Shown piece by piece: positions 12,201-64,000 of a stretch of DNA of 64,000 bases. The notes below the pieces were generated by a model. That model saw nothing but the letters and a program-made list of their open reading frames with translations, was not told the origin of the DNA and searched no databases. The position numbers and the translations under genes were made by a program. Each line of letters begins with the position of its first letter. The stretch's first letter is position 1. This stretch comes from Balanoglossus misakiensis (taxonomy: Eukaryota > Animalia > Hemichordata): positions 9,537,625 through 9,601,624 of the forward strand of contig CM082579.2 in assembly GCA_040954595.2 (NCBI GenBank). Reading direction: 5' to 3'.

Positions 12201-12678
12201 TAATTGTGTTTTATTTTAGCAGTCATTTCTATGCTAATATAAACTAATAATAACAACACCACAGTTCCCTTTTTAAGCTAACCAACTATATAATGCTGGT
12301 CAGTTCTTGTTTGCAAAGCCAACAGGTATCTGTGCTTCGGTTATTTGTAGTTTGAAGCTGTTGTTTCACTCTTCTAAAGCTGAAGTAATTGAAGAGGTGA
12401 GCATGAATTGTTGTCTATTTTCTGGTATTTGATAAACTTTTGTGCAAGTCTTACAAATTTAGAGGAAGAAAGTGGGTTTTGTTTTGTTTTGTTTTGTTTT
12501 GTTTTGGGCGATACTTTCTTATCACGAAAGCATTCTACAACACATTTGGCTTTTGTTTTTGCCTTTAATGGGAACATCATACAAAGTGCTACCTTTGTAC
12601 TGTGCTAATCGAGTACGTTCCATATGTCCAGCTCAATTCGGTTTCATTGAAATTCTTTACTCTACAGGTTAACTCACC

Positions 12679-14733: not shown

Positions 14734-15865
14734 AGCGCAGCCAATATGCAGGCTTTATAGCAATGGATATGAGGCCTATGACATGTATGACAGCAATTAA
14801 ACCTCACAAGGGGCAATGTGTTACGCAGGTCAATAAAACATGATCACATGAAAAACAATTCACCAATGGTCTGTGTTTTGATTCCACAAGTGTATAGTCA
14901 AATGCTTAGTAGGCTTCCTGACTGGACACAAGTAAATAAGCTAACGGACACCACACGACGCTGAACTCACCTCCTTTTTACTACTCTGGTGATTTCTTGC
15001 GTGTTCTATTCCTGAGATGGATTTCCCAGAATTGTCGTTATAGCTTTTTTTTCAAAAGAATATTGCCAATGGTGGGTTTTCTGAATCCATTCCTTTTTTA
15101 GACCAGCCATTTCTTCATATGGAATATTGACATGTGGCTAAATTTCTTCCTTCGATTGGCGTTTTACGTCTTTCCACATCAACAATTTGCAATTACATAA
15201 AACGCCATGATGCATTTCGGAAAATTAATTAAATAGTTGTGACTCCCAGTTTCACCATCCCCACAGCGTGAAACTCGGAGTCACAACTCCACCACCGGTC
15301 ACCTATATATGTGTCGTATTAACGCCCACAACGCGTTGTACTCCCCCTTTTTTCTGTAGTGTGTGCTTCAAGAGATATTATAGTTTGATATACCTTACAA
15401 ATGTGTTTGGTTACTGTTTGTTTGGGGTTCAAAATATTGACTCATGCACACGCTGTCTACTGGAAATTGCACCGAGAATGGGTCATGTGATCCACTTTAG
15501 ATTCAGTGATATAACTTGTGAGTCATTTATGTCTAATTTGTCAAACTTCAAATCCATAAGACTCTCGTAAGATTGAACAGTAAGACAAGTTAGACATAAG
15601 TGGCTCACATATCAAAACTATAATGTCTGTTGAAGGGCACACTGCACCACATTCAAGTGCATAATTCAACAGAAGCGAAACTAGTCTTGTCACAGGGCCA
15701 GGGGGCGTTAATACAGAATACACATAAATACCGAAAGTACGGAACACAAAATTCATTTGCTAGGTTTCTACTATACTCATAGTAATTTCTTTACTGTGAA
15801 GCTTTTCCTGTGCTGAATTCTCCTTTCCAGAACGCTGTCGCTGTCCTAGCCTTCTTTTTCAGTTC

Positions 15866-32318: not shown

Positions 32319-35503
<3,185 letters not shown>

Positions 35504-38500: not shown

Positions 38501-40784
38501 TGAGTCTGTAACTGCCTTCTGAATGGTCAAAATGTTGAATGACGTCGACCTTTATCACTGCTACACATGATAAAGATCGGGGACTAAAAGCATCCCGGTT
38601 TTAAATGTAAGGGGTCACAAAAACATTGCCAGGGGAGCTGGGGGGGGGGAATCATAATTATTTTTGTGCTTTAAACTTAAATTTCTTAATACAGTCTCCC
38701 TACATATTATTGCACTGCTTCATGAAAGAGGACTGTCAAAACACATCACTCAGCTCTTAGTACCTCCATGGTACGAACCACTATGGTCAGTAATGTTGTG
38801 GTTGGTCTTGAATTGTGTATTCATATCATCAAAGTCTGATTACATAACAGATACAGACTGTGTTGATAAGGCAGATAAGGCAGTGACTGGTATTTCTGCA
38901 AGGAGTGGGGAAAGAATACCCGACACTGTGTTTTAAGAAGGAGAGCGTCAAACTATGTTTGATCATGGAGAAGGTGGAGTGGTAGCATTTTTCGGTCAAT
39001 CAATTGAGGGAGGCCAAGTATTTTTCCGTGGACTCTTCAGTTTTCGAAAAACACCAGCCCCACCCACTGTTAATTCTGTTCAGGCCCAATGGCTTACAGA
39101 AGGTTCCGGGAATCTCTGAGACAAAGGTTAAAAAAAGTAACGGCTAGGTGAGTACGCATGATCACCAACGCAACTTACAGAGAAGAGTACTACGGCCGCA
39201 ACGGTGATTTTGTATTCGAATCGTTCTGGGTGACAGACACATGACCGTGACTTGCTATAGGAAACACCATCTGGACATAGATTTTGTACTACTTGAAATT
39301 TGAAGTTGCATCTGATACTTGAAGCAATTCAGTGTATCTCTGAGACAAGGGATAATTATAACAGGTGGGACCCAGACAGACAAGCCCTAAAAGTCGCTTG
39401 GCGATTCTCAACACTTTTCGCGTGTTTGTCTGCTTTGAGCGAGCTTCTGGTATACTGAGTTTTGAATTCGGGGATGAGTTGGTAGTATCGGTCACCATCC
39501 ACACGCGTTACATAGAGAGACTGGGAACACAATTTTCTGTAATGCATTTATGATGAAATTATGAAACCCATAGACTTGGAGCAAGTCTAAGTGGAACCGT
39601 ATACTGCAAAAAAAGTGTAGTGCATACAGATCGTTACCTATACCCATATCAAAGGCGATAATTCGGGTTCAGAACTTTATATGAAGAATTTACAATGAAC
39701 ACTCCCAATAGCATAACTCGTAAATTACGGCTGTAAAGTTATCAGTCATGACTACTAGGGAAAGGGGAAAACGGTTTACGTGGACAACGTGAAGATCGAG
39801 TTTAAGTGATTTGGCTTTCTACAAATTGAAAAAATAGGATAACCCCTCCCCGAAAACATTACACAACTACTTGTGGAGGGAAAAAACTTGTTTCCAAGAG
39901 CCTGCTCGCCGTCCTGATCTTATGTACACTATGCAATAAAGGGAAAGAGGCTCCCACCTCATTTATAAATTGCTTTAAGAAATTTATAATTGAGGTTTAT
40001 AATAGTATAGTGTTGCAAAACGATTGGGTGTGTGAGGGGTGTCCCCCTCCCGCATAAGACAATTTTGTAAAATAAGGAGCTCAAAGTCGCATTTTAATGG
40101 AGGACAATTTTTACTTTTGCTGCTGAAAGTTAGCATCGGTGCGATGGCTAGTACTCTGCCCTGGTACACTAGACAAACCAGCTAATACATGTAAATGAAA
40201 TGTGGCGAAGAATGAAAGGGTGGGTGTGGGAGGGGGTATTTGTAAAAAATAACTTAACCAGTTGACCGTGACATTATTCTAGACGACATAGTACTTATAC
40301 AGAACACGCCACCAACTTCAGTCGTGCAGTGTGTTGACCTTTCCGTCAATTTATTTTCCAAAATCGCATACATACTGTATTCCCATCAAAGTTGCTTGCC
40401 AAAGTCCTATTTAACATGTTTATCGTCTCTTTCGTCTACATTACGTTTTACATAATAGATTCTACCATCCATCGAGACAATGTTAACGAGGGTCAACAAG
40501 AAACACCTGGTGATTCTGACGTCATCGCTTCTTCTAATCGCAGGTTTTATCATCTATTGGCAAAGGTAACTTTACCATGATCACGTAACGACATTTTATA
40601 CAATACGAATAGGTCTACGAAATTGGCAAATATTGTAAAGTCGTCTACAGTCAAAATCAAACAATAGTTTCGCAAATGCAAATACTTCTATATTACGATA
40701 GCAGTGAAAGGCCAAATGATTCACTTCGATTAAAATTTTATTCACCAACTACAACTTTCATTCTCTTTTTTCAGTTCTGGATTA

Positions 40785-41867
40785 TTGAAGCTGACGCTTC
40801 TATTTCGTCACGTGATCAGTATAAAACCACCACTTGAAGTTGCCTGCAACGAAACTAGACAGATCATTTTCATTAAAACTCACAAGACAGCTAGTTCTAC
40901 AACTAATAATATCATTCAACGATTTGGATATAGTCGTGGCTTAGCCTTTGCCTTACCGAAAGGTAATCATATATTTAATGAAAAAAAGGCGTTCTCGAGG
41001 GATCTGCTCTATCAGCAAACTCCTGCAGACGAAAAGGGGAAATACTTCAACATTATAGCAAATCATTTGCGATATAATAGACCGGAACTAGACAAAGTTG
41101 TTCCTAATGCAACATATATAACCGTATTACGAGAACCAGTACGGAGATTTGGGTCGGCATTCGGATATTACAATTTCGCGCGTTCCGCTGGCCTCAGAAA
41201 ATCCAAAAATCCACTGGCGGATTTCATGAAGAGTCCCGATAAGTACATTCGGAGAGGGGGCATTCACAAAAATCTCCTGAGAAACGGTATGCTTTATACT
41301 TTGGGGTTTGATACTCGTTTCAGTGACAATGAGAATGTAATTAATGCCACGATAAAAACACTGGACAAGGAACTTGACCTTGTTCTCATCACTGATTACT
41401 ACGAGGAGTCACTTGTGTTGTTGAAAAATGTGTTGTGTTGGAAAATCCAAGACCTTCTTTACATAAGCAAAGGTATACGGAGCGAAAACAGACTCTTTGA
41501 AATCCCCAAACCAGTTGCAGATAAGATATTGAAATGGAATAAGGCTGACGCTCTGTTGTACAACCATTTCAACGACACGTTTTGGAGAAGGGTGCACAGC
41601 TACGGGGATGGGTTCTATCAAGATTTGAACGAATTTCGACTGCAGCAGCAGCAGTTCTACGAGGAGTGCGTGGATGCCAATCGAACAACGATTATCCAAA
41701 AGCGTGAAGAAGGACTAGTCATGAAAACCAACGCCAGCATAGTATGTAAAATCGCATTCCATCGCAATGTTGAATTCACAGATTTGTTGAAGAAGGAAAG
41801 TTGCCGTGGAAGAAATAAGAACTACACAGAAAGTGTATGCATTGAAAAGCAACACTCGGAGGGTTAA
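40785..41867 (+). CDS. Galactose-3-O-sulfotransferase (Gal3ST/cerebroside sulfotransferase family), copy 1, catalytic domain
   Basis: 5'-PSB motif IFIKTHKTASST, 3'-PB motif YITVLREP..RF.SAF.YY, plus LDLVLITDYYEESLVLLK..LCW and WNKAD..LY.HFN.TFW. The N-terminal exon is unresolved (candidate TM-like stretch at 40416-40565). Confidence 0.92.
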   Translation: MKLTLLFRHVISIKPPLEVACNETRQIIFIKTHKTASSTTNNIIQRFGYSRGLAFALPKGNHIFNEKKAFSRDLLYQQTPADEKGKYFNIIANHLRYNRPELDKVVPNATYITVLREPVRRFGSAFGYYNFARSAGLRKSKNPLADFMKSPDKYIRRGGIHKNLLRNGMLYTLGFDTRFSDNENVINATIKTLDKELDLVLITDYYEESLVLLKNVLCWKIQDLLYISKGIRSENRLFEIPKPVADKILKWNKADALLYNHFNDTFWRRVHSYGDGFYQDLNEFRLQQQQFYEECVDANRTTIIQKREEGLVMKTNASIVCKIAFHRNVEFTDLLKKESCRGRNKNYTESVCIEKQHSEG

Positions 41868-44246: not shown

Positions 44247-47200
44247 ATGGCTGACCCCCAGCTGTACCACAGTCTGCATTCCTGTGCTGTAAGAGCAGGG
44301 AAGCATAAGAAGTATAATATTTCAGGTAAGATGCCCAGTCATTGCTGTGTTATTTGCGTATTGTGTAAGTCAAACTTTGTATGAAACTAGAATAGGTGCA
44401 GAGTTTAAAAGCAAAGTTGTGACTTTTGTGCCGTTAAAAACAATGGGCCATGTGTTGTTTGTTCTTTTTCCTGCGCTACATGCATATCCTCCCATAAAAA
44501 CTGCGCAGCTACACCAGATCTGGCCGGGACTCGTGGAGTTCGGAAAATGGTCTGTAGCGAAACAGGCGTTACTAATGCCTTATTGCCTGATGATGTTGCT
44601 GTTGTGGCTTCATTGACTTCACAGCACATCACTCCTCGCTACACCCATCACACATGATGCAAGACTCGGACGAGGAGACGTCGAGCGAGGAAGACATCGA
44701 TGAACCGCTAGACTTCAGCCTGAAATCCTCCCATTCGAACGCCAGCACGGCCTACACCAACGAGGTGCTGCAGCCCTTAGACTACAGCTGCCGCAATCAG
44801 GGGACGGCAGACGAGGAGCTGCGACACTTCACCTTCCCCCCGGAGGACTTGCTCTTTGACGAACACCCCCAAGACTACACCCCGGAGTACAGTCAGGTTA
44901 CCTCAAAGGCTGACCGCATTCCGGGGAGGGGTGGTGAGCAGCCCTTGGCGGCGGAGGGGTTCGCCAGACCGCCAGAGAGAGACGACAGCGACGGGGACAG
45001 CCAAGCAGACGAACCCCCCAGCGGACAAAGTGAACTCATCTGCAGACAGTGCAAAGACACCAACACGCAGCATTTGTTCATCACAGTAATCTGTGGCCAT
45101 GTCAGATGTCGGCGGTGCGTTTGTAGATGGAGTCGGTGTCCCTGTGCTGCTGAGGAAGAAGGTATTGGTTGTTGTGTATTTTGTAAATAATAACAGAAAC
45201 AAACTATCAGTATCGATAATGTGCGTTGAAAATCTCACTGTTATTTTAGAATAAGTACTGATCGTGGTTTGTATTTCAGGTTCACACAGCCATGGAAGAT
45301 GCTAATTCTGTTTCCTTGGTTACAGGTTACACCAGTGAGGAAGCAAGAGATGAACCAGAATCGCCTCCGCGAATCAGCGTTAAGCGGGAACCAGTGGAAC
45401 TCAGCAGTGACGAGACGGTGGACACGGATGTAGACACGAGGGAGGAGGACATTAACAATCACACCAGGACTGAGTCTGACACCGACGCAGCAAGCGCAAG
45501 TGTCGGCGAGGAGGCCAGGCCAGGCCCAGCGTTGAATATCAAAGAAGAGGGGGAGGAGTCGCCCTGTCTCTTCGACGCCCCTCCAGGTGCAGATTCCGAT
45601 GCGGAAGTCGGCACTGATGCAGTCGCAGCCTCCGAGCCAGTCGCCGAGGAAACACCGCAGAACGGGGACGCGGATGTCAAACCGGCGATTGCTCCTCCCC
45701 CGTCTTTTGCCAGTGTGGCAGTCGGCACGGAGTCTGTCGCTACGGCGGACGTCGGCACTGATGCTGTAGCAGCAGCAGCAGCCTTGTCGGTCACCGTGGA
45801 TACACCCCGAAGCTGGGATGTTGACGTCAAGCCTGTCGTGGCTCCCCCGTCTGTTGTCAGCGTGGGGGTCGGCACCGAGTCTGCGGCGAGGGCCGAAGTT
45901 GGAATCGGGACTGTCGCAGCATTGACATTTGGTAGGGGAGTGCCGGCAGACGTGGACGTTCATGTCAAGCCGGCCATCTCGTCCACTCTTGTCGACGTGG
46001 GAGTGGGCACAGACTTTGTAATCACGCCTGACGTTTGCCCCGATGCCCCCACTGCCACTAACAGCAGTCTCGATGTCAGAGCTGACACTGCCATTTGTGA
46101 CTCTGCAAATCTGAACAGGGTGGGAGACACTACAATTATTGCAAATCAGACATGTAAACACTGCCGTGCCAAACTTTCAGCAGACGGCGCACCGGCTGCT
46201 GGGAATACGGTCGAGAAGGTTGACGTGGGCGTTTGCACAACGCACAGCATTGTAACCATGGACACCAGTGTCGACGGGTCGCCGTTTACTCTCTTTGTGA
46301 CCAATATTGACGACAGCCCGGAGGACGTTCCGACGCGTGCTTCCCACGCGCTGGTCGTCGACGTCAAGGATATCACCGTGTCAACGTCCGATGTGGGTGT
46401 CGATACCGGGGATTTACCTGACAGAACGCTTGGAATGAGCGCCATGGCCGCCAGCACTGTGGCCGGTTCAGCGGTGTTACGAACCCATGTTAGCGTGGAC
46501 ACGCAGGATTTGCGTGGCGCGACCAAGGCTGCACTCACTGTCGACGTTGCGGTAGGGAACGATACGGCGCCAAACTGCGCGGATGTCGCCACGGATACAG
46601 GGGTCACAAAGTGTGACGCGAGTGTTGACACCCGAGGCCTGGTGGCGACGTTCACCGTCAGTACAGCGGCTGGACGTGATGCTGCGACCGGCTGCGTGGA
46701 TGCGTCCACGAACACGAAGATTGCGCAGAGTGACGTGAATGTGGACACCCAGGACTTCATCGCCACGTTCACGGTCAGTACATCAAGCTGCACCGACCCC
46801 CGGCCGGACTGTGTAGACGTCGCCACGAATACGAAGGTCATACAGAGTGACGCTTACGTAGATACGAAAGACTTCCTGGCGATGTTCACCATGGAGATGT
46901 CGACGTGCACCGACGCACCCCCGGGGAGAGTGGACGCTACTACTGACACGGAGATTGTGCAGGGTGATGCGAACGTTGACACTCAGGACTTCGTGGCTAT
47001 GTTCACTGTCAGTTCAGCAACGTGTACAAATCCTCCTCCAGAGTCTGTAGATGTTGCGATTAATACACGGGTCGCACAAAGTGATGTGAACGTTGACACG
47101 CGAGACTTCGCGGCCATGAGAACTGCCTGTAGGTCGACATGCACCAATCCTCTGCCAGACTCGGTAGATGCTGCCACCAATACAAAAATACTTCAGAGCG

Positions 47201-50200
47201 ACGTGAACGTTGACACAAAAGACTTTGTGGCCTTGTTCACTGTCAGTACAGGAATGTGCACCAATCCTCTGCCCGACTCGGTCGATGCTGCAACCGACGC
47301 CACGGTTACTCAGAGTGATGCAACCGTCGACACGAGGGACTTTCTGGCAAGGACGACCGTCGACTCTGCAGCAGGAAGCGACACTTTGCCGAACTGTACT
47401 GTGGATGCTGCCACCCTTACGGAGGTCATGCAAAGTGACGTGATCGTGGACACGCGAGACTTGGTGTCGCGGACGACTGCGGATGCAACCACTGGAAACA
47501 GAGCTGTACATGAGTGTGTAAATGCGGCAACTAATACTGTTGTCGCTCCAAAATCCGTACAGCCTGATGTCTGCATTGACAGTGAAGTCGTAGACAAGGC
47601 AACGGTTCGTCTGGCATCTGGGGTTCATGGTTCCAGCAACACACGAAGCAGCCCACGCGTGGATTCAGACTATTCAGACACTGCCGGCAAGACGTTTGTC
47701 AGTCAAAATAGCGCACAGCGCTTGACTAATAGTGCGGAATCTTTTGCGGCGGGTTTCGGCGTCGACGATCGTGTATCAGCTGTTCCACAGATGACATCCC
47801 ACTCCCAAGGAACATCTCCACTGTCTGCGGATTTAAATCAAGAAAGTACTCTGACCGAAACCATCGCATGTGCGCTGTTGTCCCTTGAAGATACGCCCTT
47901 TGAGGAACTGCATACCGATGTCTCCAGGAGTGAGGAATTTGCCGGTCTACCCCTTTTGCCCGACGTAGCGGACATCAGCCAGGTGACGCGAGAGGAGGAG
48001 GTGCACACGGAAGAACACATCGCTGCAACAGACACGTCCAATGCAGAGAACAGAAACACTGGGCCTCGTTTCACAGAGCTGCCGTGTGAATCAAGCACAC
48101 TGTTGAAACTATTGGCCGAGGTAGCACGTAGTGTGGAAACGTCCGCTGAGGAAGTGACCCGAGTTGAAATGTCTGACTCAGAAAAAGTAGCGCCTGCTTC
48201 TGAAGCATTCACTCTTGAAAACCCCAATGTAGAAGTGTCCCAAGTAGGAAACGTGAACTTAGAAACACCGACGGTTGAAAAAAGACCGTGTGTCGAAAAA
48301 ACAGGAACCGTCAGTGTTAACAGGCCCCAGAGAAGGGTCTCCCGCACAGAGAAACCCAATGCAGAACGATCTAACTCTGAAAACTCGCAAAGAAAGATTT
48401 CCACTGTGGAGAAGTCCGATGCCGAGATGCACCACGTGGGGAAGGCAGTGAGGAAAAAATCGAATATGCGAAGTCCCGCAAAAACGTCCCTGATTGGGTT
48501 GCTTCTTGGCGACACTGAAGATGCAGAGGTGACCGCGGCAAAAACCTCATATGCTGCATTCACGGCTGGTGACAGTAACACAGATTTGTCCCACCATGAT
48601 CAAAACCGTTCAGAAGTTGTGCCCTGCGTAGTGTCCCAAGATTTGTCTAACACAGAAAGCAGCATCGGTAAAACGAATTCCGCCAACTGTACAACGGGTG
48701 CGGATGATCAAGTATCGAATGATAACCAAGGCTGTTCAGAAGTAGTTTCTGGCGTAGAGACATCTCTGGACACTGGGGATGGCGCGATCTCAACCGGCGA
48801 AAGCCGGAAGCGCGACAGAGAACATGTAAAAATGTCATCGGGATGCACACTCACACCCACAACCAGACCTTCACTGTTGAACGAAAAAGCCATTCCCTCT
48901 GAGGATGGTGACAGTGATGATGGAATTGGTGGTGGTGGTGATAGCAACGACGATGAACAATTAACACCGGGTAATGATAATACAGACTCGGCCACGACAG
49001 CGGCCTCCTCCAAGGACAATGCTGAGAACACCACCTCATCCTCTTCCCAGGACAAGGCTGAGAGTTCCGGTTCCAGAAAGAGAAAGGGGGAATATATCGA
49101 CAGCAATATCAAGCGGGCAAGGATAGCTTTAACTGATGGTCGTGGAGACAGTGAAACTGATGACCAGACGGAAGGAGAATCAGTCCAAAGTCACCATGTT
49201 ACTCGCTCACGGAACCGAAATCCATTGACGATCACAAAGGATATGGCGCATGATCGGACTGAACGGCACAAATTGGCTCTGGTGAGGGCTTTCCTCCTCG
49301 TACACTACAAGAATTCGTCCGACGGAAACAGCCAGGTGAGGTTGTCGCAGATGATGGCAGAATTCGAGAAGTATTGTGAGAACCACGGATTCAAGGGCTG
49401 CGCAAGTGTGGACGGTGATGCCATAACGTACGCCGCGCAAACCACTTTCAAAGACTGCGATTATTGCGGACAGCGCAAGCTCTTTACAGGGATCGAGAAA
49501 GCGTCGCCAGCGTCCGTACTATCCTTGTTCAAGCCTGGCACCGCGCTGGTTGTGGAGGACTTCGAAACCGCGGCCGTTGATTTCTTGGCGCGGAATTACG
49601 AGCCGTGCGCGGGTAGTCTGTTGTCGGCAGGCTTCATCACACAGCATTTCATGCGGGAGTTAAGAGCCAAGGACTTGGAGCTCATACCTCCGTTACAGAG
49701 CACGAGTTACTTGCACCGGCAGTTCGGACTGAACCAGTGTTCAGTGGCGTTTGCCAACTGCAGATACGACGTGTCGCTGGCAATGGTGCACGGGCTGCGA
49801 ATGAGACAGGACGGAGTTGCAGAATTCAGAGACGTCGGCGGCGGCCGCCAGAAAACGGCCAAGAACCCCAGGAAGAGAACAAAAACTGCCGCAGCTGGGG
49901 ACGGCAGAAGGAGACAGGCGGCCAAACCTCGCATAGCGGAGACCGCAGTCAACCACATCGAACGGTGCAAAGACGGCAGGATAGTGATATCGAAGGGCAA
50001 AGTTTACGAGGTGCTGTTTCGGTCTTTCATCATGGTGAACTACGAGGCCACCGACTCCGCTGAGGACCAGGTGGATCTTGTCTACGTTGAAAACTCTTTT
50101 AAGCGAGAGTGCGACAAACAGGGTCGCCACCGGTTCCCGCTCGCGATCCTTCACAAACTGCGCATCATGGGGATCATCAAGACCAAGTTCCCGACGTGTG

Positions 50201-50592
50201 TGTATGACCAGGGCAGCTTCGCCAAGCTCAAGAAGGTACCGGTGTGCGACATCATGGCTAAGGTCAACAAGTCCAAGCAGAACGTGCTGGATTTCTTGGC
50301 CGTCGTCACCTTCTTCATCAGTCGGCTGCTGCTGGGGTCGCTACAGAATTTTGTGCTGGCCACCGACTTGGTGGCCACCTTCAGGGAGTACTGCGAGGTG
50401 CACCACTACAAGATACCCGGGCCCTACCACGAGGACGTCGTCTTGAAGACCATATCCGGGCAGATCTGCACCTCGCTGTTCCGGAACTGCTTCTTTGATG
50501 ACAAACTCTTCATCGTGTACGGCGTCTGCAAGAAGTCGAACAATGTCAGAACGCTGGATGAGGGCGTCGGTGACTTCTACCCGGTGTCGTAG
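44247..50592 (+). CDS. Uncharacterised nuclear protein of about 1960 aa: PLDxS motifs, RING finger, Thr/Asp/Val repeats, four RFX-like winged helices (exons 44247-44325, 44625-45161, 45326-50592)
   Basis: 5.3-kb open last exon. Two phase-1 GT-AG introns (TCAG|GTAAG..ACAG and GAAG|GTATT..GCTAAT-pyrimidine tract-TACAG) join the 178-aa and 1766-aa ORFs in frame. Domains were recognised by eye. Confidence 0.8.
46480..47540 (+). repeat. Coding minisatellite, 117-bp (39-aa) period, about 8-9 units
   Basis: DxxVDT[QRK]D[FL] recurs at 46615, 46732, 46849, 46966, 47083, 47200, 47317 and 47437. Confidence 0.9.
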
Positions 50593-51574
50593 CTGCAGTG
50601 TGACCCCGTACTTACCAGACACAGGTGACACTGGTGTTTTTCGACAGGAAATGGTCTCTCTTTCTCGAAATGACAGTGTTGATTCCTGAACAAAATGGCT
50701 CCCTGTGCACGTCATGAGTTGCAACCATTGCCAAATTTTATGACTGATCGAAGTGTTTTTCCTTGTCTGCATCAGTCATTTTGAAAACTCCTAGTTACAG
50801 ATAACCTTGCGTTGGTCAATCGTGCTGGACAATTATTCTTACAATTCAAAATGCCAAAACAACTCCAAATGCTATATAATATGTATGATATCAAGCAGTA
50901 TCATAAAAATTTGCCAGTTGCAGTTTTATTCCAGCAGGTGTATGCAAATTCAAAAATCATACCAGAACGTCATTTTTTATATCTTTATTATAATGTATAG
51001 CAAATTTGATAAAAACTTGCACAAATAATGGACAGATATATTTAAGGTATACTTGTGTGTGTAGGCAGTCCTTGATCGGTTAAACTTAATTAACATACAT
51101 ATCATACTACTTTTTTTCTGTAATATGCCCAAATTATATTTTTCAGATTATGTAATGATGTTTATATATTCTGCATGGAGTTTTACATGTAATCCGTGTC
51201 ATAAATTCAGATATCTATTTTTTTAAATTTGTGCTAGTAGTGAAGTGATTTTTTGAGAAAAATCTTTTAACAAAGTTATGTTTTATTTATCTGTAACACC
51301 CAAATGTGCCAATAGCAATCAAACTCGTGATCATGACATCATGAAATAAATGTTCCATGTTGCATATCAGAAACCATTGTGTGAGGGAGTGTTATGGGAT
51401 GGGTTGAGTGTGAGTATTTACAGTGCAGTTGCAGCACTGCGCTTATACACACTGTGTTTGTTGATCAACATCAGATTTTACCCACAAATCTCTGCCATGT
51501 TAATCAATAATTTGCATTTCAAAATATTTTAAAAGTGCTGACTCGGCAAAAATCAGAAAGAGCAGACCACTGCC

Positions 51575-51681
51575 TGGACTAAAAGATTCAGTCGTGTGCG
51601 GGCGCTCCGACAATGCCTCGTCCCGAAAGGGTCTTAGGCGGAGAGCCAGAGCGCCCGCACAAGACTGAATCTGTCAGTCTC
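51575..51681. mobile_element. 107-bp palindromic MITE with imperfect 9-bp TSD (second, internally deleted copy at about 60076-60168)
   Basis: Inverted repeat AGATTCAGTCGTGTGCGGGCGCTC/GAGCGCCCGCACAAGACTGAATCT, flanked by ACCACTGCC/ACCACTACC. The empty site is present in the inverted paralog at about 42205-42225. Confidence 0.8.
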
Positions 51682-53516
51682 ACCACTACCGTAACCTTTT
51701 ACTCTTGTACTATAACTTTCAATAATTGATTGTAAAAACTACATATATAAATGTAAAACGAAACCTTCGCCCTGATGGAGATTGTCTATAAAGGAATGAT
51801 TCTATCATTAACAAACTAGGCCTATATCTAGAGAAATTTGCTGCTTAGACAGAATGTCTAATAAGGTCACTGTTAACTACAAACATTCTGCAATAATAGA
51901 TTGATTTCGCGCATTATATCTGATTCTGAAATACACTGTTTTGGGGTAAATCGTCGTCCGGTCCGCACGGCTTGGCTAGCTCGTTGTTTATTTATAGCCT
52001 ACACGCTCCCTAATCTCCGGACCCTACCCTCGCCCGCCCGAGATAACATATAATGGCCATGCAGCAAAGATAGGGTAAATTTAATTTGGTCATCACTTCA
52101 ACGATAATCATTTAACACGCGAGTATAATTGGAACTAACACGTGACACCCTTGGCGTTGTGGCCTTAACCCTCCGACTGTTGCTTTTCAATGCATACACT
52201 TGTTGTGTAGTTCTTATTGCTTCCACGGCAACTTTCCTTCTTCAACAAATCTGTGAATTCAACATTGCGATAGAATGCGATCTCACATACTGTGCTGGCG
52301 TTGGTTTTCATGACTAGTCCTTCTTCACGTCCTTGGATAATCGTTGTTCGATTGACATCCACGCACTCTTCATAGAACTGCTGCTGCTGCATTCGAAATT
52401 CGTTCAAATCTTGATAGAACCCATCCCCGTAGCTGTGCACCCTTCTCCAAAACGTGTCGTTGAAATGGTTGTACAACAGAGCGTCTGCCTTATTCCATTT
52501 CAATATCTTATCTGCAACTGGTTTGGGGATTTCAAAGAGTCTGTTTTCGCTCCGTATACCTTTGCTTATGTAAAGAAGATCTTGGATTTTCCAACACAAC
52601 ACATTTTTCAACAACACAAGTGACTCCTCGTAGTAATCAGTGATGAGAACAAGGTCAAGTTCCTTGTCCAATGTTTTTATCGTGGCATTAATTACATTCT
52701 CATTGTCACTGAAACGAGTATCAAACCCCAAATTATAAATCATACCGTTTCTCAGGAGAGTTTTGTAAATGCCCCCTTTCCGAATGTACTTATCGGGACT
52801 CTTCATGAAATCCGCCAGTGGATTTTTGGATTTGTTGAGGCCAGCGGAACGCCCGAAATTGTAATATCCGAATGCCGACCCAAATCTCCGTACTGGTTCT
52901 CGTAATATAGTGATATATGTTGCATTAGGAACTACCTTGTCTAGTTCCGGTCGATTATATCGCAAATGACTTGCTATAATGTTGAAGTACTGTTACGATC
53001 TGTATAAAGGTCAAATACGATTTCAAGGGTTAATTAATCCAGAGCTCGGGAATGTCAATGTTTGATAGTATTTGATTTTATGTATTTGAAGTAGATAGGG
53101 AGAGCGGGTGTTTACCTGACTGCTCTGGTTGTCAATCATCACCGAACTGACTTTCTTATATAACACTTTATGTAAATTGGTACGTATAGAGTTGACTGAT
53201 GCCCAATGAAATTGTAACACATATATTTTACATTATTAACCACGCCTTGAGAAAAGTAATTATAAGAGAACTTTGTTTCCAAAGTTGAAAAAAAAAGAAT
53301 AATCTAACGGGAGATGGGAGTACCTCAGGCTACTGAGTTCGTTCCCTTCCTCATGTACTTTACTGGGCGTATTTGATGTACTATATAATTCCGGACAATA
53401 AATGAACGTGAATCAGATACGTGTCTCCGTGGATCACTGTTCTCGTCAGAGCCCGATACCTCATCGCTACAGATTCCCCGATGCATGAACAATCATGAGA
53501 AACCAGCCGTAATACA

Positions 53517-53526
53517 TGGTGGAGAT
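53517..53526 (+). promoter_or_regulatory. Primer-binding site, complementary to a tRNA 3' end (tRNA-Ala-like, ...CTCCACCA)
   Basis: TGGTGGAGAT immediately 3' of the 5' LTR; the tRNA identity is from memory of tRNA-Ala acceptor ends. Confidence 0.7.
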
Positions 53527-53591
53527 ACGTGGGTAGACGAAACAAATCCATCGGAGACAGAAACGGCGACGTCCAGCGGAAAGATTACAGC

Positions 53592-54461
53592 ATGGATCGC
53601 GAGATGCTAAACGACATGAACAGTCAAATATCGGAAATACGACAGGTTACACTCAGAGCTGGAGGTCAGGTAGGCCCAGGTTTCTTTTCGGGTACAGAGA
53701 CTGAGAATGCACACCGATGGTGGAAAAGATATATAGACTTTGCTGACTTTAAGCAATGGTCAGACGAGAAACGGCTTAAAGGAATCGGACTATATTTGAC
53801 TGGTGAAGCGGAGCGATGGTTCTACAGACTGTCTGCAGAAAAGAAAAACGACTTGACGACACTGCAAAATGTCTTCCTCGCTTGTTTTGATAAGTGCGGT
53901 CCGATGTGGCTGTATGACGAGAAACTGTTTCGCCTGAAGCAACTGCCGGACCAGACTGTTGAACAATATGCGGAATTAATATGCGAAAAAGCAGAAAAAG
54001 CGAAAAAGACTGATGAGGAAATACTATCTTTCTTCATGAACGGACTGAGACCGGACATACTAAAGTTCGTAGCGGGAATGTCACCTAAGGATTTCGAAAC
54101 AGCGTACAAACATGCTCGAACAGCAGAGGTCGTGGCAGGATTACCAGAGACAGACGAGCCAGAAGCGGGTCTTTTACAACAAATCTCGACACGGATTGAC
54201 GAGATGAAACAAGAAGATCAAGAAGTGAAGACCAAATCAAGCGCGGCAGATCATCGAGGACGATCGACAAAAAGAGAGAAGAAATCGCCGAATTACAGAG
54301 CAAGAGAACGAACAATAGACAATAAGGTAAAGAGGAACAGATATAATTTTACTGGGCACTCTACCCAACGTTTTCCTCGACATAGTCAATTTAATTCCCG
54401 TGCATGTTTTAATTGTGGGCGTTACGATCATATAGCTAGAAATTGTTCAAAATATGCGTAA
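53592..54461 (+). CDS. gag: Ty3/Gypsy-like Gag (capsid domain plus CCHC zinc knuckle)
   Basis: Capsid-type segments FFSG.E...A..WW, L.GEA.RWF and LKQ...QTVEQY...F..GL.PDI, and a C-terminal CFNCGRYDHIARNC (CX2CX4HX4C). The ORF is open from 53529; the first ATG is at 53592. Confidence 0.92.
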   Translation: MDREMLNDMNSQISEIRQVTLRAGGQVGPGFFSGTETENAHRWWKRYIDFADFKQWSDEKRLKGIGLYLTGEAERWFYRLSAEKKNDLTTLQNVFLACFDKCGPMWLYDEKLFRLKQLPDQTVEQYAELICEKAEKAKKTDEEILSFFMNGLRPDILKFVAGMSPKDFETAYKHARTAEVVAGLPETDEPEAGLLQQISTRIDEMKQEDQEVKTKSSAADHRGRSTKREKKSPNYRARERTIDNKVKRNRYNFTGHSTQRFPRHSQFNSRACFNCGRYDHIARNCSKYA

Positions 54462-57400
54462 CAGAAAAAAAACGGAAAAGGGAGACACGTGGTTGATTGA
54501 AATGAATATTTGAATATGACTGAGAGGTATGAGTGTATGCCGGCCTGTATGAGTGAGTGTACGATTGGCGTGTCCCTTGATTCGTTTAATGTTACGTAAG
54601 TTGTCAAATGACGTTTTATAGTCCGATATTTTCTGAGTTTAGTTGTAAGTGCTGTGCAACCTGGTTCCCGTGTCACTCTGTTTAAATGTGTTTATGTATT
54701 TGAGTTGTAAAGAAATTACCAGTGAAGTTTGAAGTTGCAGAGATTTTAACATTGGAGAAAAATGTTGTGAGTTGAATTTGCCGTTCGTTTGATGACCTAA
54801 ATAGATGGTCCAATTTGTGTAAATAGCCCCTTTTAATGGCTATGTGTTTGTATAAAGAAACCAAAGAAAATCCCATTTTCGAATGAAGAAAATGCCATTT
54901 TCGAAGTTGTAAAGAGTGGATTTTTGACAAAACGCTAAGATGTTTCAGTTTTAAATTTTTAAAGGTTATTGAATTTGCCCGACATGACGTAACTCGAGAA
55001 TAAGGAATGTCGGATGATCGTTCGATGTAAAAGAATGCAAGAGTATTTCGTTTGAGTCAATAAGACAACAGATATTAAGATTGTGTTCTATGATGGATAC
55101 AACGTTTTATGGGTTACAGAAGGAGTTGCGATTTTATTGTTTATATTAGTAGGTGGATATGTGTGCGAAGGTTTTATGTGCACATACTATTTTAAGTTTA
55201 TATGTACTTTTATTCTGTAGTAATTTTTGGATTGTAATTTTATATATTTTTAAGACGATCACTTCATAGACATGACTAGATTTTTTTTCCAAATATTTTA
55301 CTTCAATTTTGTTATATATATTGTACTCTTACATTTCAAAATCATACGGTACATCTTAATATACTCTTGGGATGGAATTGAACGATTACCCTTGGTGTAC
55401 TGCTCTTTAAGAGATTTGTGTCCAATGCGGGACGCATTGGTTTAAAAGGAGGGGAGTGTTACGATCTGTATAAAGGTCAAATACGATTTCAAGGGTTAAT
55501 TAATCCAGAGCTCGGGAATGTCAATGTTTGATAGTATTTGATTTTATGTATTTGAAGTAGATAGGGAGAGCGGGTGTTTACCTGACTGCTCTGGTTGTCA
55601 ATCATCACCGAACTGACTTTCTTATATAACACTTTATGTAAATTGGTACGTATAGAGTTGACTGATGCCCAATGAAATTGTAACACATATATTTTACATT
55701 ATTAACCACGCCTTGAGAAAAGTAATTATAAGAGAACTTTGTTTCCAAAGTTGAAAAAAAAAGAATAATCTAACGGGAGATGGGAGTACCTCAGGCTACT
55801 GAGCTCGTTCCCTTCCTCATGTACTTTACTGGGCGTATTTGATGTACTATAGTAATTCCGGACAATAAATGAACGTGAATCAGATACGTGTCTCCGTGGA
55901 TCACTGTTCTCGTCAGAGCCCGATACCTCATCGCTACAGATTCCCCGATGCATGAACAATCATGAGAAACCAGCCGTAATAACATTTCCCTTTATCGTCT
56001 GCAGGAGTTTGCTGATAGAGCAGACCCCTCGAGAACGCCTTGCTTTCATTAAATATCTGTGTACCTTTCGGTAAAGCAAAGGCTAAGCCACGAGTATATC
56101 CAAAACGTTGAATGATATTATTAGTTGTAGAACTAGCTGTCTTGTGAGTTTTAATGAAAATGATCTGTCTAGTTTCCTTGCAGGCAACTTCAAGTGGTGG
56201 TTTCATACTGATCCCTTGTCTAGTTACGTTGCCGGCGATTACGAAAAGCGTTTTCGTCAGCTTACCCATCGTGTGGCGAAATGTTAGAGTCAACTTCAAT
56301 AGCTTAGAACTGAAAAAGAGAGTGAAAGTTGTAGTTGGTGAATAAACTTTACATCGAAGTGAAACTTTTGGCCTTTCACTGTTATCGTAATATAGAAGTA
56401 TTTGCATTTGCGAAACTATTGTTTGATTGTGACTGTAAACAGCACGACTTTACAATATTTGCTAATTTCGTAGACCTATTCGTATTGTATAAAATGTCGT
56501 TACGTGATCATGGTAAAGTTACCTTTGCCAATAGATGTTAAAACTTGCGATGAGAAGAAGCGATGACGTCATAATCATCAGCCGTTTCTTGTTGACCCTC
56601 GGGAACATTGTCTCGATGGATGGTAGAATCTATATGGAAAACGTAATGTAGACGAAAAAGACGATAAACATGTTAAATAGGGCTGATTAGCCTAAATGAC
56701 ATAGGCTTTCAGATATATAAAGAGTGGGAAAACTTCACTAAATATAATGCATGCCTAATGATGGGATACTGTTCATTATTGCATACGTGTCACTGTATTC
56801 TATGTGACAGGTAATCTGTTATTTGTCCAATGCCCCAACTGTGATTTATGGGTTCACCAGACAATGTTTTTGTGACCCCACTATTATTAAAACGGGGACG
56901 CTTTTAGTCCCCGGTCCTTTGTATGGCAGTGATCGAGGTCGTTCAACATTTTGACCATTCAGAAGGCAGCTATCAGCCTCACAGTCAAGGAACATGTTCT
57001 AGTTACATGTCCTAGTTTGTTGTACTTGTGCCATGTATTTTGTTTTCTTTTTCTATATTTCTATGGGCTTGGATCCTGATTTAAATAAATAAATAAATAA
57101 ATATATACACAGTTGAATCAACGAAAATACTTGCCCACCGGCACATGTAATCTTTGACTCCAAATCAATACCTTTACCATTGCGATTGTCTTTTCCCCGT
57201 TGTTTTTGAGTGAAGACCGCAGAAATTATAAGGTGGCATTCATTGAATATACAAATGTAAAGTCAATATAAATCCCAATTACAAACATCTTTGAGATCAA
57301 CATAAGCTATAACAGCCGCTTCTAATTGGAGGGGGGTTCATCTGAAGACATCACTTTGTCATAACACGCAAATAATATATGGGTCCATGTTATTGCTAGG

Positions 57401-58897: not shown

Positions 58898-59078
58898 AGA
58901 TACCCGGGCCCTACCACGAGGACGTCGTCTTGAAGACCATATCCGGGCAGATCTGCACCTCGCTGTTCCGGAACTGCTTCTTTGATGACAAACTCTTCAT
59001 CGTGTACGGCGTCTGCAAGAAGTCGAACAATGTCGGAACGCTGGATGAGGGCGTCGGTGACTTCTACCCGGTGTCGTA
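58898..59078 (+). pseudogene. Duplicated 3' fragment (last about 59 codons) of the RING/RFX-like gene
   Basis: IPGPYHEDVVLKTISGQICTSLF...FYPVS* is nearly identical to 50411-50592, with no upstream exons. Confidence 0.85.
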
Positions 59079-60651
59079 GCTGCAGTGTGACCCGTACTTT
59101 ACCAGACACAGGTGACACTGGTGTTTTTCGACAGGAAATGGTCTCTCTTTCTCGAAATGACAGTGTTAATTCCTGAACAAAATGGCTCCCTGTGCACGTC
59201 ATGAGTTGCAACCATTGCCAAATTTTGTGACTGATCGAAGTGTTTTTCCTTGTCTGCATCAGTCATTTTGAACACTCCTTGTTACAGATAACCTTGTGTT
59301 GGTCAATCGTGCTGGACAATTATTCTTACAATTAAAAATGCCAAAACAACTCCAAATAATATATAGGCCTAATATGTATGATAACAAGCAGTATCATAAC
59401 AATTTTCCACTTGCATAGTTTTATTCCAGCAGGTGTATGCCAATTCAAAAATCATTATACCAGAATAGATTATAGTTATTTTTTATATCTTTATTATAAT
59501 ATATAGCAAATTTGATAAAAACATGCACAAATAATGGACAGATATATTTAAGGTATACTTGTGTGTGTAGGCAGTCCTTGATCGGTTAAACTTAATTAAC
59601 ATATCATACACCTTTTTTTCTGTAATATGCCCAAATTATATTTTTCAGATTATGTAATGATGTTTATATATTCTGCATGGAGTTTTACATGTAATCCGTG
59701 TCATAAATTCAGATATCTATTTTTTTAAATTTGTGCTAGTAGTGAAGTGATATTTTGAGACAAATCTTTTAACAAAGTTATGTTTTATTTATCTCTAACA
59801 CGCAAATATGCTAATAACAATCAAACTCGTGATCATGACATCATGAAATAAATGTTCCATGTTGCATATCAGAAACCATTGTGTGACGGAGTGTTATGGG
59901 ATGGGTTGAGTGTGAGTATTTACAGTGCAGTAGCAGCACTGCGCTTATACACACTCTGTTTGTTGATCAACATCAGATTTTACCCACAAATCTCTGCCAT
60001 GTTAATCAATAATTTGCATTTCAAAATATTTTAAAAGTGCTGACTCGGCAAAAATCAGAAAGAGCAGACCACTGCCTGGACTAAAAGATTCAGTCGTGTG
60101 CGGGCGCTCCGACAATGCCTCGTCCCGAAAGGGTCTTAGGCCCACACAAGACTGAATCTGTCAGTCTCACCACTACCGTAACCTTTTACTCTTGTACTAT
60201 AACTTTCAATAATTGATTGTAAAAACTACATATATAAATGTAAAACGAAACCTTCGCCCTGATGGAGATTGTCTATAAAGGAACGATTCTATCATTAACA
60301 AACTAGGCCTATATCTAGAGAAATTTGCTGCTTAGACAGAATGTCTAATAAGGTCACTGTTAACTACAAACATTCTGCAATAATAGATTGATTTCGCGCA
60401 TTATATCTGATTCTGAAATACACTGTTTTGGGGTAAATCGTCGTCCGGTCCGCACGGCTTGGCTAGCTCGTTGTTTCTTTATAGCCTACAGTCTCCCTAA
60501 TCTCCGGACCCCACCCTCGCCCGCCCGAGATAACATATAATGGCCATGCAGCAAAGATAGGGTAAATTTAATTTGGTCATCACTTCAACGATAATCATTT
60601 AACACGCGAGTATAATTGGAAGAAACACGTGACACCCTTGGCGTTGTGGCC

Positions 60652-61899
60652 TTAACCCTCCGACTGTTGTTTTTCAATGCATACACTTTCCGTGTAGTTC
60701 TTATTTCTTCCACGGCAACTTTCCTTCTTCAACAAAGCTGTGAATTCAACATCGCGATGGAATGCGATCTCGCATACTATGCTGGCGTTGGTTTTCATGA
60801 CTAGTCCTTCTTCATGTCCATGGATAATTGTTGTTCGATTGACATCTACGCATTCCTCGTAGAACTTCTGCTGCTGCATTCGAAATTCGTTCAAATCTTG
60901 ATAGAACCCATCCCCGTAGCTGTGCACCCTTCTCCAAAACGTGTCGTTGAAATGGTTGTACAACAGAGCGTCAGCCTTATTCCATTTCAATATCTTATCT
61001 GCAACTGGTTTGGTGATTTCAAAGATTCTGTTTTCGCTCCGTATAGCCTTGCTTATGTAAAGAAGGTCTTGTATTTTCCAACACAACACATTTTTCAACA
61101 ACACAAGTGACTCCTCGTAGTAATCAGTGATTAGAACTAGGTCAAGTTCCTTGTCCAGTGTTTTTATCGTGGCATTAATTACATTCTCATTGTCACTGAA
61201 ACGAGTAGCAAACCCCAAATTATAAAGCATACCGTTTCTCAGGAGATTTTTGTGAGTGCCCCCTTTCCGAATGTACTTATCGGGACTCTTCATGAAATCC
61301 GCCAGTGGATTTTTGGATTTGTCTAGGCCAGTGTAATGCGCGAAATTGTAATATCCGAATGCCGACTCAAATCTCCGTACTGGTTCTCGTAATATAGTAA
61401 TATATGTTGCATTTGGAACAACTTTGTCTAGTTCCGGTCTATTATATCGCAAATGGTTTGCTATAATATTGAAGTATTTCCCTTTATCGTCTGCGGGGCT
61501 TTGTTGATAGAGCATATCCCTCAAGAACGCATTGTTTTCATTAAATCTATGTGTACCTTTCGGTAAGGCAAAGGCTAAGCCACGAGTATATCCAAATCGT
61601 TGAAAGATATTATTAGTTGTAGAACTAGCTGTCTTGTAAGTTTTAATGAAAATGATCTGTCTAGTTTCCTTGCAGGCAACTTCAAGTGGTGGTTTCATAC
61701 TGATCCCTTGTCTAGTTACGTTGCCGGCGATTACGAAACGCGTTTTCGTCAGCTTACCCATCGTGTGGCGAAACGTTAGAGTCAACTTCAATAGCTTAGA
61801 ACTGAAAAAGAGAATGAAAGTTGTAGTTGGTGAATAAACTTTACATCGAAGTGAAACTTTTGGCCTTTCACTGTTATCGTAATATAGAAGTATTTGCAT
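60652..61899 (-). CDS. Gal3ST copy 3 (open frame, but KTHKT changed to KTYKT)
   Basis: Uninterrupted 415-aa ORF highly similar to copies 1 and 2; the start codon is uncertain. Confidence 0.85.
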   Translation of the reverse strand: MQILLYYDNSERPKVSLRCKVYSPTTTFILFFSSKLLKLTLTFRHTMGKLTKTRFVIAGNVTRQGISMKPPLEVACKETRQIIFIKTYKTASSTTNNIFQRFGYTRGLAFALPKGTHRFNENNAFLRDMLYQQSPADDKGKYFNIIANHLRYNRPELDKVVPNATYITILREPVRRFESAFGYYNFAHYTGLDKSKNPLADFMKSPDKYIRKGGTHKNLLRNGMLYNLGFATRFSDNENVINATIKTLDKELDLVLITDYYEESLVLLKNVLCWKIQDLLYISKAIRSENRIFEITKPVADKILKWNKADALLYNHFNDTFWRRVHSYGDGFYQDLNEFRMQQQKFYEECVDVNRTTIIHGHEEGLVMKTNASIVCEIAFHRDVEFTALLKKESCRGRNKNYTESVCIEKQQSEG

Positions 61900-64000
61900 T
61901 TGCGAAACTATTGTTTGATTTTGACTGTAAACAGCACGACTTTACAATATTTGCTTATTTCGTAGACCTATTCGTATTGTATAAAATGTCGTTACGTGAT
62001 CATGGTAAAGTTACCTTTGCCAATAGATGTTAAAACTTGCGATGAGAAGAAGCGATGACGTCATAATCATCAGCCGTTTCTTGTTGACCCTCGGGAACAT
62101 TGTCTCGATGGATGGTAGAATCTATATGGAAAACGTAATGTAGACGAAAAAGACGATAAACATGTTAAATAGGGCTGATTAGCCTCAATGACATAGGCTT
62201 TCAGATATATCAAAAGTGGCAAATCGAGGTCGTTCAACATTTTGACCATTCAGAAGGCAGCTATCAGCCTCACAGTCAAGGAACATGTGTTCTAGTTACA
62301 TGTCCTAGTTTGTTGTACTTGTGCCATGTAATTTGTTTTCTTTTTCTATATTTCTATGGGCTTGGAGCCTGATTTAAATAAATAAATAAATAAATATATA
62401 CACAGTTGAATCAACGAAAATACTTGCCCACGTGCACATGTAATCTTTGACTCCAAATCAATACCTTTACCATTGCGATTGTCTTTTCCCCGTTGTTTTT
62501 GAGTGAAGACCGCAGAAATTATAAGGTGGTATTCATTGAATATACAAATGTAAAGTCAATATAAATCCCAATTGCAAACATCTTTGAGATCAACATAAGC
62601 TATAACAGCCGCTTCTAATTGGAGGGGGGTTCATCTGAAGACATCACTTTGTCATAACACGCAAATAATATATGGGTCCATGTTATTGCTAGGCGGGAAT
62701 TCAATATTTAGCCCGCATTCCTCCGTCTCTTTATCAGAATTGTAACTTTACAGTTTCGATTTGTATTTTTTATCAGCTTAATAGGAGAGAAATTTTCTCT
62801 TAAAGGGGATATGAGGAACGGCATAGATTGAGGTCACTTAGTCTGGGCGGGCCGGACCGTAGGTCTGGTCACTGCGGTCTGGTCCCCGCCCGGCCACTTT
62901 AGGTAGTATTAGCCAAGTCGATCTTCACGTTGTCGTCCACGTAAACCGTTTTCCCCTTTCCCTAGTAGTCATGATAACTTTACGGCCGTAATTTACGAGT
63001 TATGCTTTTGGGAGTGTTCATTGTAAATTCTTTGTATCAAGTTCTGAACCCGAATTATCGCCTTTGATAGGGGTATAGGTAACGATCTGTATTCACTCCA
63101 CTTTTTGTGCAGTGTACGGTTCCACTTAGACTTGCTCCAAGTCTATGGGTTTCATAATTTCACCATAAATGCATTACAGAAAATTGTGTTCCCAGTCTCT
63201 CTATGTAGCGCGTGTGGATGGTGACCGATACTACCAGCTCATCCCCGAATTCAAAACTCAGTATACCAGAAGCTCGCTCAAACGGCAGACAAACACGCGA
63301 AAAGTGTTGAGAATCGCCAAGCGACTTTGGGTTCCTCTAGTAAGAAAAGTTGTCCGCATGTACTCACCCACCTGTTATAATTAATCCCTTGTCTCAGAGA
63401 TACACTGAATAGCTTCAAGTATCAGATGCACCTTCAAATTTCAAGTAGTACAAAATCTATGTCCAGATGGTGTTTCCTACTGATAGCTAGTCACGGTCGC
63501 GTGTCTGTCACCCAGAACGATTCGAATACAAAATCACCGTGGCGGCCGTAGTAGGGCCTATTCGTCTCGGTACGTTGGTGATCATGCGTACTCACCTAGC
63601 CGTTTTTTTGTTCTTTTTTTACACTTGCCCCAGAACCTGCCTAGAACCTTTTGAAAGCCATAGGGCTTGAATAGAATTAACAGTGGGTGGGGCTGATGTT
63701 TTCCGAAAACTGAAGAGTCCACGGAAAAATACTTGGCCTCCCCCACTTGATTGCCCGAAAATGCTACCACTCCACCTTCTCCATGATCAAACATAACAGG
63801 TTCCCCTGAAAATGCTCTTATACGTGACCCCACTTCATTTAAAACAGGGATGCTTTTATATAATTAGTCCCCGGTCCTTTTGTATGGCAGTCATCGAGGT
63901 CATTCAACATTTTGACCATTCAGAAGGCAGCTATCAGGCTCACAGCACACATTGTTAAGTGTCCTAGATTTTTATACACAATTTAATCAACGACAAACAT

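Follow-up and report, generated by a model that had tools for sequence, protein, structure and literature searches.

A 64,000-nucleotide window of the genome of the acorn worm Balanoglossus misakiensis (assembly GCA_040954595.2, contig CM082579.2, positions 9,537,625 to 9,601,624 of the forward strand) contains, at positions 44247-50592 of the window, a gene whose predicted product of 1960 residues combines two CtBP-like motifs, a RING-like zinc finger, a tandem repeat array and four related C-terminal blocks, for which winged-helix folds are predicted with differing confidence. All function discussed here is predicted; on its sequence features and structural models the protein is likely to be a chromatin-bound nuclear repressor scaffold and not a true RFX factor. 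Its architecture is new and is assembled from known parts, each with a known analogue. Neither four RFX/D5-type domains in one animal protein nor this combination of parts was found in searches of listings of the open-licence literature, although transcription-factor catalogues in the supplements of hemichordate genome papers could list the gene. The initial annotation of this stretch, made from its letters alone, had not recognised the architecture, and our searches brought up no described family.

Gene structure and an ortholog in Ptychodera flava

The window is animal-type DNA of about 39% GC, and a coding island at 44-50 kb is richer in GC. Two open frames were confirmed in this island (44594-45190 and 45262-50592), the longer of which has 1776 codons, compared with 289 for the longest frame among 200 shuffles. 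Joining the segments 44247-44325, 44625-45161 and 45326-50592 at GT/AG sites yields the 1960-residue protein through two phase-1 introns, confirming that the joins 44325/44625 and 45161/45326 proposed earlier are in frame. On its sequence, the locus is a real intron-containing animal gene.

Since many other GT/AG pairs are likewise in frame, the sequence alone does not fix a junction. The 45161/45326 junction is favoured because the ortholog from Ptychodera flava keeps an identical six-residue spacing across it, from the last cysteine to Y-x-S-E-E. Of all parts of the gene model, the small upstream exon is the least secure, because just 6 of its 26 residues (23%) match P. flava. Within intron 2, an acceptor at 45280 has a strong-looking pyrimidine tract and its use ends the chain after 213 residues, the early stop that the initial annotation had expected, and an ATG at 45292 stands in a good context (GCC-ATG-G). 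Omission of exon 2 keeps the frame and gives a 1781-residue product. As an observation in its own right, the alternative acceptor and well-placed ATG at 45280-45303 could yield a RING-only product or a form without the CtBP-like motifs and RING.

Searches with the C-terminus against 5.8 billion and 1.84 billion proteins, and with exon 2 against the 5.8 billion, recovered a sole homolog, the P. flava protein XP_070553990.1/XP_070553991.1 of 1941 residues; one of these searches used an alignment that included the whole P. flava protein, so that its profile was not block-specific. In this annotated gene model the parts occur in the same order as in the window protein, making it the one ortholog of the same domain order that was found, and its continuity across the second junction supports the earlier view of a single polypeptide with that order. 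A tblastn search with P. flava residues 33-214 matched 44615-45160 at 42% identity, and the aligned proteins are 43% identical in the N-terminal and 53% in the C-terminal part. Conservation is highest at the named parts, with 58% identity in the CtBP-like stretch, 71% in the RING-like finger and 49-66% in the blocks, against 21% in the long spacer; the repeats are 38% identical (single blocks and linker in Table 1). Because identity is concentrated in the named parts as against the spacer, the segment-wise pattern indicates selection on a working gene.

The P. flava protein is annotated 'serine-rich adhesin for platelets-like'. A secreted adhesin was considered and rejected: there is no hydrophobic N-terminus in either species, and the name reflects low complexity only.

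The four C-terminal blocks

To relate the blocks (B1 to B4) to one another, we compared summed alignment scores with 500 shuffles, using block borders set by eye. Scores were high for B1-B3 (z 11.4), B2-B4 (z 12.1) and B1-B4 (z 8.3), none of which was reached by any shuffle, and weaker for B2-B3 (z 3.6, 2/500), B3-B4 (z 1.8, 28/500) and B1-B2 (z -0.5, 355/500); hhalign gave 21% for B1-B4. Because block 1 is related to block 3 and block 2 to block 4, while B1-B2 and B3-B4 are not significant, a tandem block pair was probably duplicated, and the profile and shuffle scores for B1-B3 and B2-B4 bear out the earlier description of four related blocks arranged as two pairs.

Block 2 carries the structural assignment. 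Its model, built from five alignment rows, has a predicted local distance difference test score (pLDDT) of 90.8 and a predicted template modelling score of 0.82 (two of the five models exceeded 90, the others lying at 65-75), with the order helix-strand-helix-helix-strand-strand. Foldseek placed RFX1 (1dp7) first (E 4.5e-3), followed by RFX5 (8zjr, E 0.09) and then matches from E 1.5, and in the viral library BFVD the named matches were mostly D5-type helicase-primases (best E 2.5e-3). Among 48,161 chains compared by VIA, RFX5 ranked highest (Z 9.1, root-mean-square deviation 2.4, 76 residues aligned) and RFX1 second (Z 7.7; 2.5, 70), ahead of the P4 origin-binding domain (Z 6.0; 3.1, 79), the PrimPol of African swine fever virus (ASFV; Z 5.4; 3.6, 83) and a next match at 5.2; other ASFV PrimPol chains on Foldseek's list reached Z 7.5, tying RFX1 (7.7). 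In Atlas, 22 of 30 matches fell in Pox_D5-bearing clusters (up to 0.93), where Pox_D5 occurs on 14-18% of cluster members among the rows listed, and one mixed Pox_D5/RFX cluster scored 0.91; an initial Atlas search fell below its own recognition level. Given this model, block 2 is firmly placed in the RFX/D5 winged-helix subgroup.

The other blocks are less well modelled. In a four-block model, block 1 gave mostly winged-helix matches, which weakly suggests that it is a winged helix, and block 4 gave one match row (E2F8, Z 5.8); Foldseek with this model was uninformative. Blocks 3 and 4 are predicted to be winged helices by homology. The four RFX/D5-like winged helices of the initial annotation are thus retained with confidence for block 2, weakly for block 1, and through homology only for blocks 3 and 4. 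No Pfam family matches any single block at E <= 10, and PDB sequence searches that used the C-terminus, block 1, block 2 or the four-block profile gave no useful match (best E 0.049, a designed protein). ARID2- or Rsc9-type domains were not among the listed fold-search matches, which does not exclude them.

RFX-type winged helices are known as single domains of animal RFX factors, canonical members of which carry one each, in a few RFX-like proteins, and in the tails of viral D5 primase-helicases. By structure-based alignment, block 2 is 23% identical to RFX1 and 13% to RFX5, and block 1 is 13% identical to RFX5. In the excerpts from which all papers are cited here, RFX membership entails at least 40% identity to known RFX DNA-binding domains together with nine DNA contacts (PMC2873420; the family definition also appears in PMC10530576 and PMC5838959), these being R19, K45, R48, R57, R58, G60, R62, K66 and Y67 (PMC12311785). 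The DNA-contact wing pattern, strict or relaxed, is present in none of the eight blocks of the two species, and an R...K-Y pattern like R62/K66/Y67 of RFX1 is present in one, block 1 of P. flava; an end-anchored mapping of block 2, approximate and made without residue-level alignment, recovers none of the contacts. Pfam RFX has no match in the window protein, and the RFX-wing DNA pattern none in the genome contigs. With 13-23% identity and the contact pattern in 0/8 blocks, the window protein is, by sequence comparison, not an RFX family member, and the lack of this pattern weakens the earlier proposal of DNA binding in the RFX manner.

Effector motifs, repeat array and genomic surroundings

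The paired N-terminal motifs PLDFS and PLDYS recall those of CtBP-dependent repressors, as CtBP is bound and required by PxDLS-bearing repressive domains (PMC9890238). Two motifs of this type appeared in 0 of 20,000 composition shuffles of either species' N-terminus, using a pattern written after the motifs had been seen, and no paper on PLDFS together with CtBP was found in the open-licence literature.

The RING-like finger is the most conserved segment of the protein. Its eight Cys/His residues and helix Trp are conserved, as is its C-x-C ending, and it likely binds zinc. Pfam RING models match it at E 0.05-0.6, the best at 14.1 bits against a cut-off of 27.9. Active RINGs usually carry a basic residue after the last Cys, and the finger has none there. 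The earlier RING assignment is matched by the eight conserved ligands but not by the C-x-C last pair or the sub-cut-off Pfam score; these last two features weaken the proposed E3 ligase activity, which appears doubtful. Downstream, VKRE and IKEE resemble the SUMO-acceptor consensus, and both sites are conserved in P. flava.

The central array has a lag-39 identity of 45% and a period of 117 in Tandem Repeats Finder, and the main period in P. flava is 37 residues. Each unit contains the motifs DVATNT, DVNVDT and a third T-rich stretch, spaced 11-15 residues apart. These resemble non-canonical sites for LC8 (dynein light chain) such as those of KANK1 and ASCIZ, whereas the initial annotation had assigned the array no function. 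An acidic-x-small-T/V-anchor-T pattern occurs 16 times in the window protein and 41 times in P. flava, compared with shuffle means of 0.5 and 0.8 and no match outside the region, but the pattern was derived from the repeats themselves, so that these counts only formalise them. The pattern has no match in viral contigs, and Pfam Dynein_light has none in phage P4 and 14 control genomes. The published LC8 motif spans 8-10 residues with a Q anchor, for which N, M, S and G variants are recorded (PMC12057147); in KANK1, weak VNT/TNT-type sites separated by linkers of 3-4 residues bind 15 LC8 dimers (PMC12803091), and the activity of ASCIZ drops as LC8 occupancy rises (PMC5963919). There is about an even chance that the repeats bind LC8. 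A single canonical-looking V-Q-T site is present in P. flava, at residue 255.

The C-terminal third carries a net charge of +16 in both species, and the remainder is acidic. The linker between the block pairs, described in the initial annotation as basic and resembling a nuclear localization signal (NLS), is indeed basic, but is poorly conserved (26%) and contains no seven-residue window with at least five K/R. Residues 500-570 (about 46210-46420), which follow the scattered motifs and precede the repeat array, form an unexplained island 65% identical to P. flava.

Several further features surround the gene. The 2.6-kb duplicate that holds the truncated copy (Table 1) carries the winged-helix gene's 3' end and also a sulfotransferase copy, and galactose-3-O-sulfotransferase copies lie around the locus in tandem and inverted arrangement, at 40734-41867 (+), 52165-52992 (-), 55934-56449 (-) and 60652-61941 (-). 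One such copy on the minus strand is split into the parts at 52165-52992 and 55934-56449 by an element of about 3 kb (52991-55983) with 525-bp direct repeats 99.6% identical and TG...CA ends. It contains one gag-like frame (53499-54461; Retrotrans_gag, zf-CCHC) and no pol-sized frame, and is likely, from its sequence, a young non-autonomous long terminal repeat element. Farther upstream lie an 827-codon frame (15800-18283, +) that apparently encodes a multi-pass membrane protein and matches no Pfam family at E <= 0.01, exons of a NIPA magnesium-transporter gene (33715-35503, +), and, at 5012-15217, several local duplications of 0.4-0.9 kb with 76-89% identity and a GGAT-type simple repeat near 13.1-13.7 kb.

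Table 1. Features of the predicted gene and its truncated copy, in window coordinates; identities are to P. flava.
Feature	Position	Strand	Remarks
Candidate first coding exon (26 codons + 1 nt)	44247..44325	+	donor CAG/GTAAGA; in-frame join; uncertain
Intron 1	44326..44624	+	GT-AG, phase 1
Exon 2	44625..45161	+	537 nt, symmetric; holds both CtBP-like motifs and the RING-like finger
PLDFS, PxDLS-like motif 1 (aa 54)	44705..44719	+	identical in P. flava
PLDYS, PxDLS-like motif 2 (aa 77)	44774..44788	+	identical in P. flava
RING-like zinc finger, aa 166-200	45041..45145	+	C-x2-C-x13-C-x-H-x2-C-x2-C-x6-C-x-C; last pair atypical
Intron 2	45162..45325	+	GT-AG, phase 1; contains rival acceptor 45280 and ATG 45292
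Exon 3 through stop codon	45326..50592	+	
Two SUMO-acceptor-like sites	VKRE 45379-45390, IKEE 45538-45549	+	P. flava: IKQE twice
Scattered D/S-V-G-V-G-T-type motifs and conserved island (aa 500-570)	45712..46407	+	island 65% identity
Repeat array, about 8 units of 39 aa (117 nt)	46573..47559	+	each unit with three short T-rich motifs; candidate sites for multivalent LC8 binding
RKRK basic patch ahead of block 1	49075..49086	+	candidate NLS; P. flava has a longer basic cluster here
Block 1, winged helix (low-confidence model)	49261..49509	+	65% identity
Block 2, RFX/D5-type winged helix (confident model)	49558..49815	+	62% identity
Basic linker between block pairs	49846..49932	+	26% identity
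Block 3, block 1 paralog	49996..50244	+	hhalign 87%, E 3.9e-6; 66% identity
Block 4, block 2 paralog	50281..50544	+	hhalign 65%, E 6.1e-5; 49% identity
Truncated copy of last 60 codons	58898..59079	+	inside 2.6-kb local duplication, 50411-52989 to 58898-61476, 95%

Proposed function, alternatives and relation to known systems

We chart, with slightly better than even confidence, a model in which the protein acts as a nuclear repressor scaffold. It would enter the nucleus, where its two tandem winged-helix pairs and basic linkers would hold DNA or nucleosomes by a mode other than the X-box code of RFX factors; since the wing contacts are gone, any such binding must use another surface, candidates being the block 3 basic helix, the block 1 wing and the basic linkers. 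PLDFS and PLDYS would recruit the corepressor CtBP, while the two conserved SUMO-type sites and the RING-like finger may add SUMO/ubiquitin control or partner binding. The repeats could dock numerous LC8 dimers, which would couple two chains and keep the effector end apart from the end that binds DNA; the LC8-bound array would then work either as a tunable switch, as in ASCIZ, or as a rod, as in KANK1.

Several observations weigh against this model. Conservation is based on one species pair, with two sequences in all. Neither N-terminal motif is a literal PxDLS, position 4 being F or Y instead of L in both species, and the CtBP motifs of the initial annotation accordingly hold as conserved PLDFS/PLDYS motifs and not as PxDLS. 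The four-block model, from two sequences, is of poor quality, with a pLDDT of 41, and its block 1 shows a tie between RFX5 (Z 6.8) and cullin WHB and ESCRT-II (7.6). No Foldseek match at E <= 0.001 was obtained in searches of the four-block and block 2 models, the Atlas shared-feature counts (158-161) are below the 170 typical of same-family matches, and block 2 is neutral to acidic, with net charges of -1 and -2 in the two species. For the repeats, the motif pattern was written after seeing them, the canonical TQT-type LC8 site is absent from the window protein, and many motifs are anchored by D, which is not among the variants in the excerpt of PMC12057147.

Some of these points would fit a rather unlikely alternative, in which the winged helices are protein-docking modules of a RING-based ubiquitin/SUMO adaptor that does not bind DNA, loosely a one-chain cullin-RING or Nse1-type ligase. 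Such an adaptor could account for the finger being the most conserved segment (71%), for the weak model of block 1 matching cullin WHB first, and for a block 2 that is not basic and RFX DNA contacts that are lost. However, the confident block 2 model ranks RFX/D5 folds well above cullin-type WHB (Z 9.1 vs <=4.8), and the blocks are homologs of one another. The C-terminal third is also basic, and the finger ends in C-x-C with no basic residue to follow.

A bolder reading, which we consider quite improbable, extends the repressor scaffold: an acorn-worm lineage may have taken over an origin-binding winged helix of D5/RFX type, whose source could be a DNA virus or mobile element, quadruplicated it, and wired it to CtBP/RING/SUMO effectors through 25-40 LC8 sites. 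LC8 loading would then zip two chains into a rod of about 90-140 nm, scaled from the 53 nm reported for 15 LC8 dimers (PMC12803091). Eight winged helices would sit at one tip of this rod and the corepressor sites at the opposite one, and if true, the LC8 level would set both how far the repressor reaches and how active it is.

It is markedly improbable that the locus mainly makes separate products, namely a 213-residue CtBP-motif/RING protein through acceptor 45280 and a winged-helix protein begun at ATG 45292 or made by skipping exon 2. The pyrimidine tract, the ATG context and the in-frame skipping of exon 2 all permit such products, but the annotated P. flava protein spans the junction with the same spacing, and isoforms of this kind may coexist with the full-length form.

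Even less can be said for a diverged RFX paralog, one or more of whose domains would continue to recognise X-box-like DNA. RFX5 and RFX1 lead the structural matches and R...K-Y is kept in P. flava block 1 (1/8), yet the 13-23% identity, the wing pattern in 0/8 blocks and the lack of a Pfam RFX match make this very improbable. Finally, an inserted viral or transposon gene related to D5-type primase-helicases, in place of a working host gene, is extremely improbable. Although most BFVD and Atlas matches are to C-terminal domains of viral D5 proteins, ASFV PrimPol (Z 7.5) ties RFX1 (7.7) and the gene is confined to two genomes, it has GT-AG introns, no primase or helicase domain in its long frame, an intact and selectively conserved ortholog and host-type neighbours. 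The domains themselves may have a remote viral origin.

A host gene with four such predicted domains, invisible to Pfam and misannotated as an adhesin, would show that the domain can be multiplied and reused in one animal lineage, and would provide a third branch for studying the relationship of RFX and viral D5 domains, with its breadth limited to two species. Should the repeats bind LC8, the protein would rank with the most multivalent clients of LC8, and because its unit count is regular and differs between species, the rules of LC8 cooperativity could be tested directly.

Each part of the protein can be set beside a known system. The window protein shares with PxDLS-type CtBP-recruiting repressors a pair of N-terminal motifs that lie in an acidic region and are better conserved than their flanks, and differs in that F or Y replaces L. 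Like ASCIZ/ATMIN and KANK1, it has a long acidic low-complexity region with many closely spaced T-x-T-type motifs, which in ASCIZ is likewise combined with DNA-binding domains; in contrast to both, its motifs are set in a regular tandem unit of 37-40 residues with N, D or G anchors, and we claim no sequence homology. RFX factors, represented by RFX1 (1dp7) and RFX5 (8zjr), share the winged-helix topology and are the closest structural matches to block 2, whereas the window protein has four domains instead of one, 13-23% identity without the nine contacts, and in addition a RING-like finger, CtBP-like motifs and a repeat array. ARID2 and the choanoflagellate cRFX3 are RFX-like proteins outside the RFX family that retain five of the nine contacts (PMC2873420), and they resemble the window protein in bearing an RFX-like domain of <30% identity in a non-RFX protein; unlike theirs, the blocks here are without the contact pattern and the domain is quadruplicated.

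The D5-type primase-helicases (origin-binding domain of P4 alpha, 1ka8; ASFV PrimPol; Pfam Pox_D5) likewise end in a C-terminal winged helix, of the same fold subgroup in VIA, Foldseek-BFVD and Atlas. By sequence, the eight-block profile does not detect P4 alpha, a tblastn search of phage gave no useful match, and eight pattern matches in viral contigs yielded none that was confirmed. No primase or SF3 helicase Pfam family occurs in the 1775-residue frame, exon 2 or the P. flava protein, and the window gene thus differs from these viral enzymes as a spliced host gene that carries their type of winged helix without the primase or helicase.

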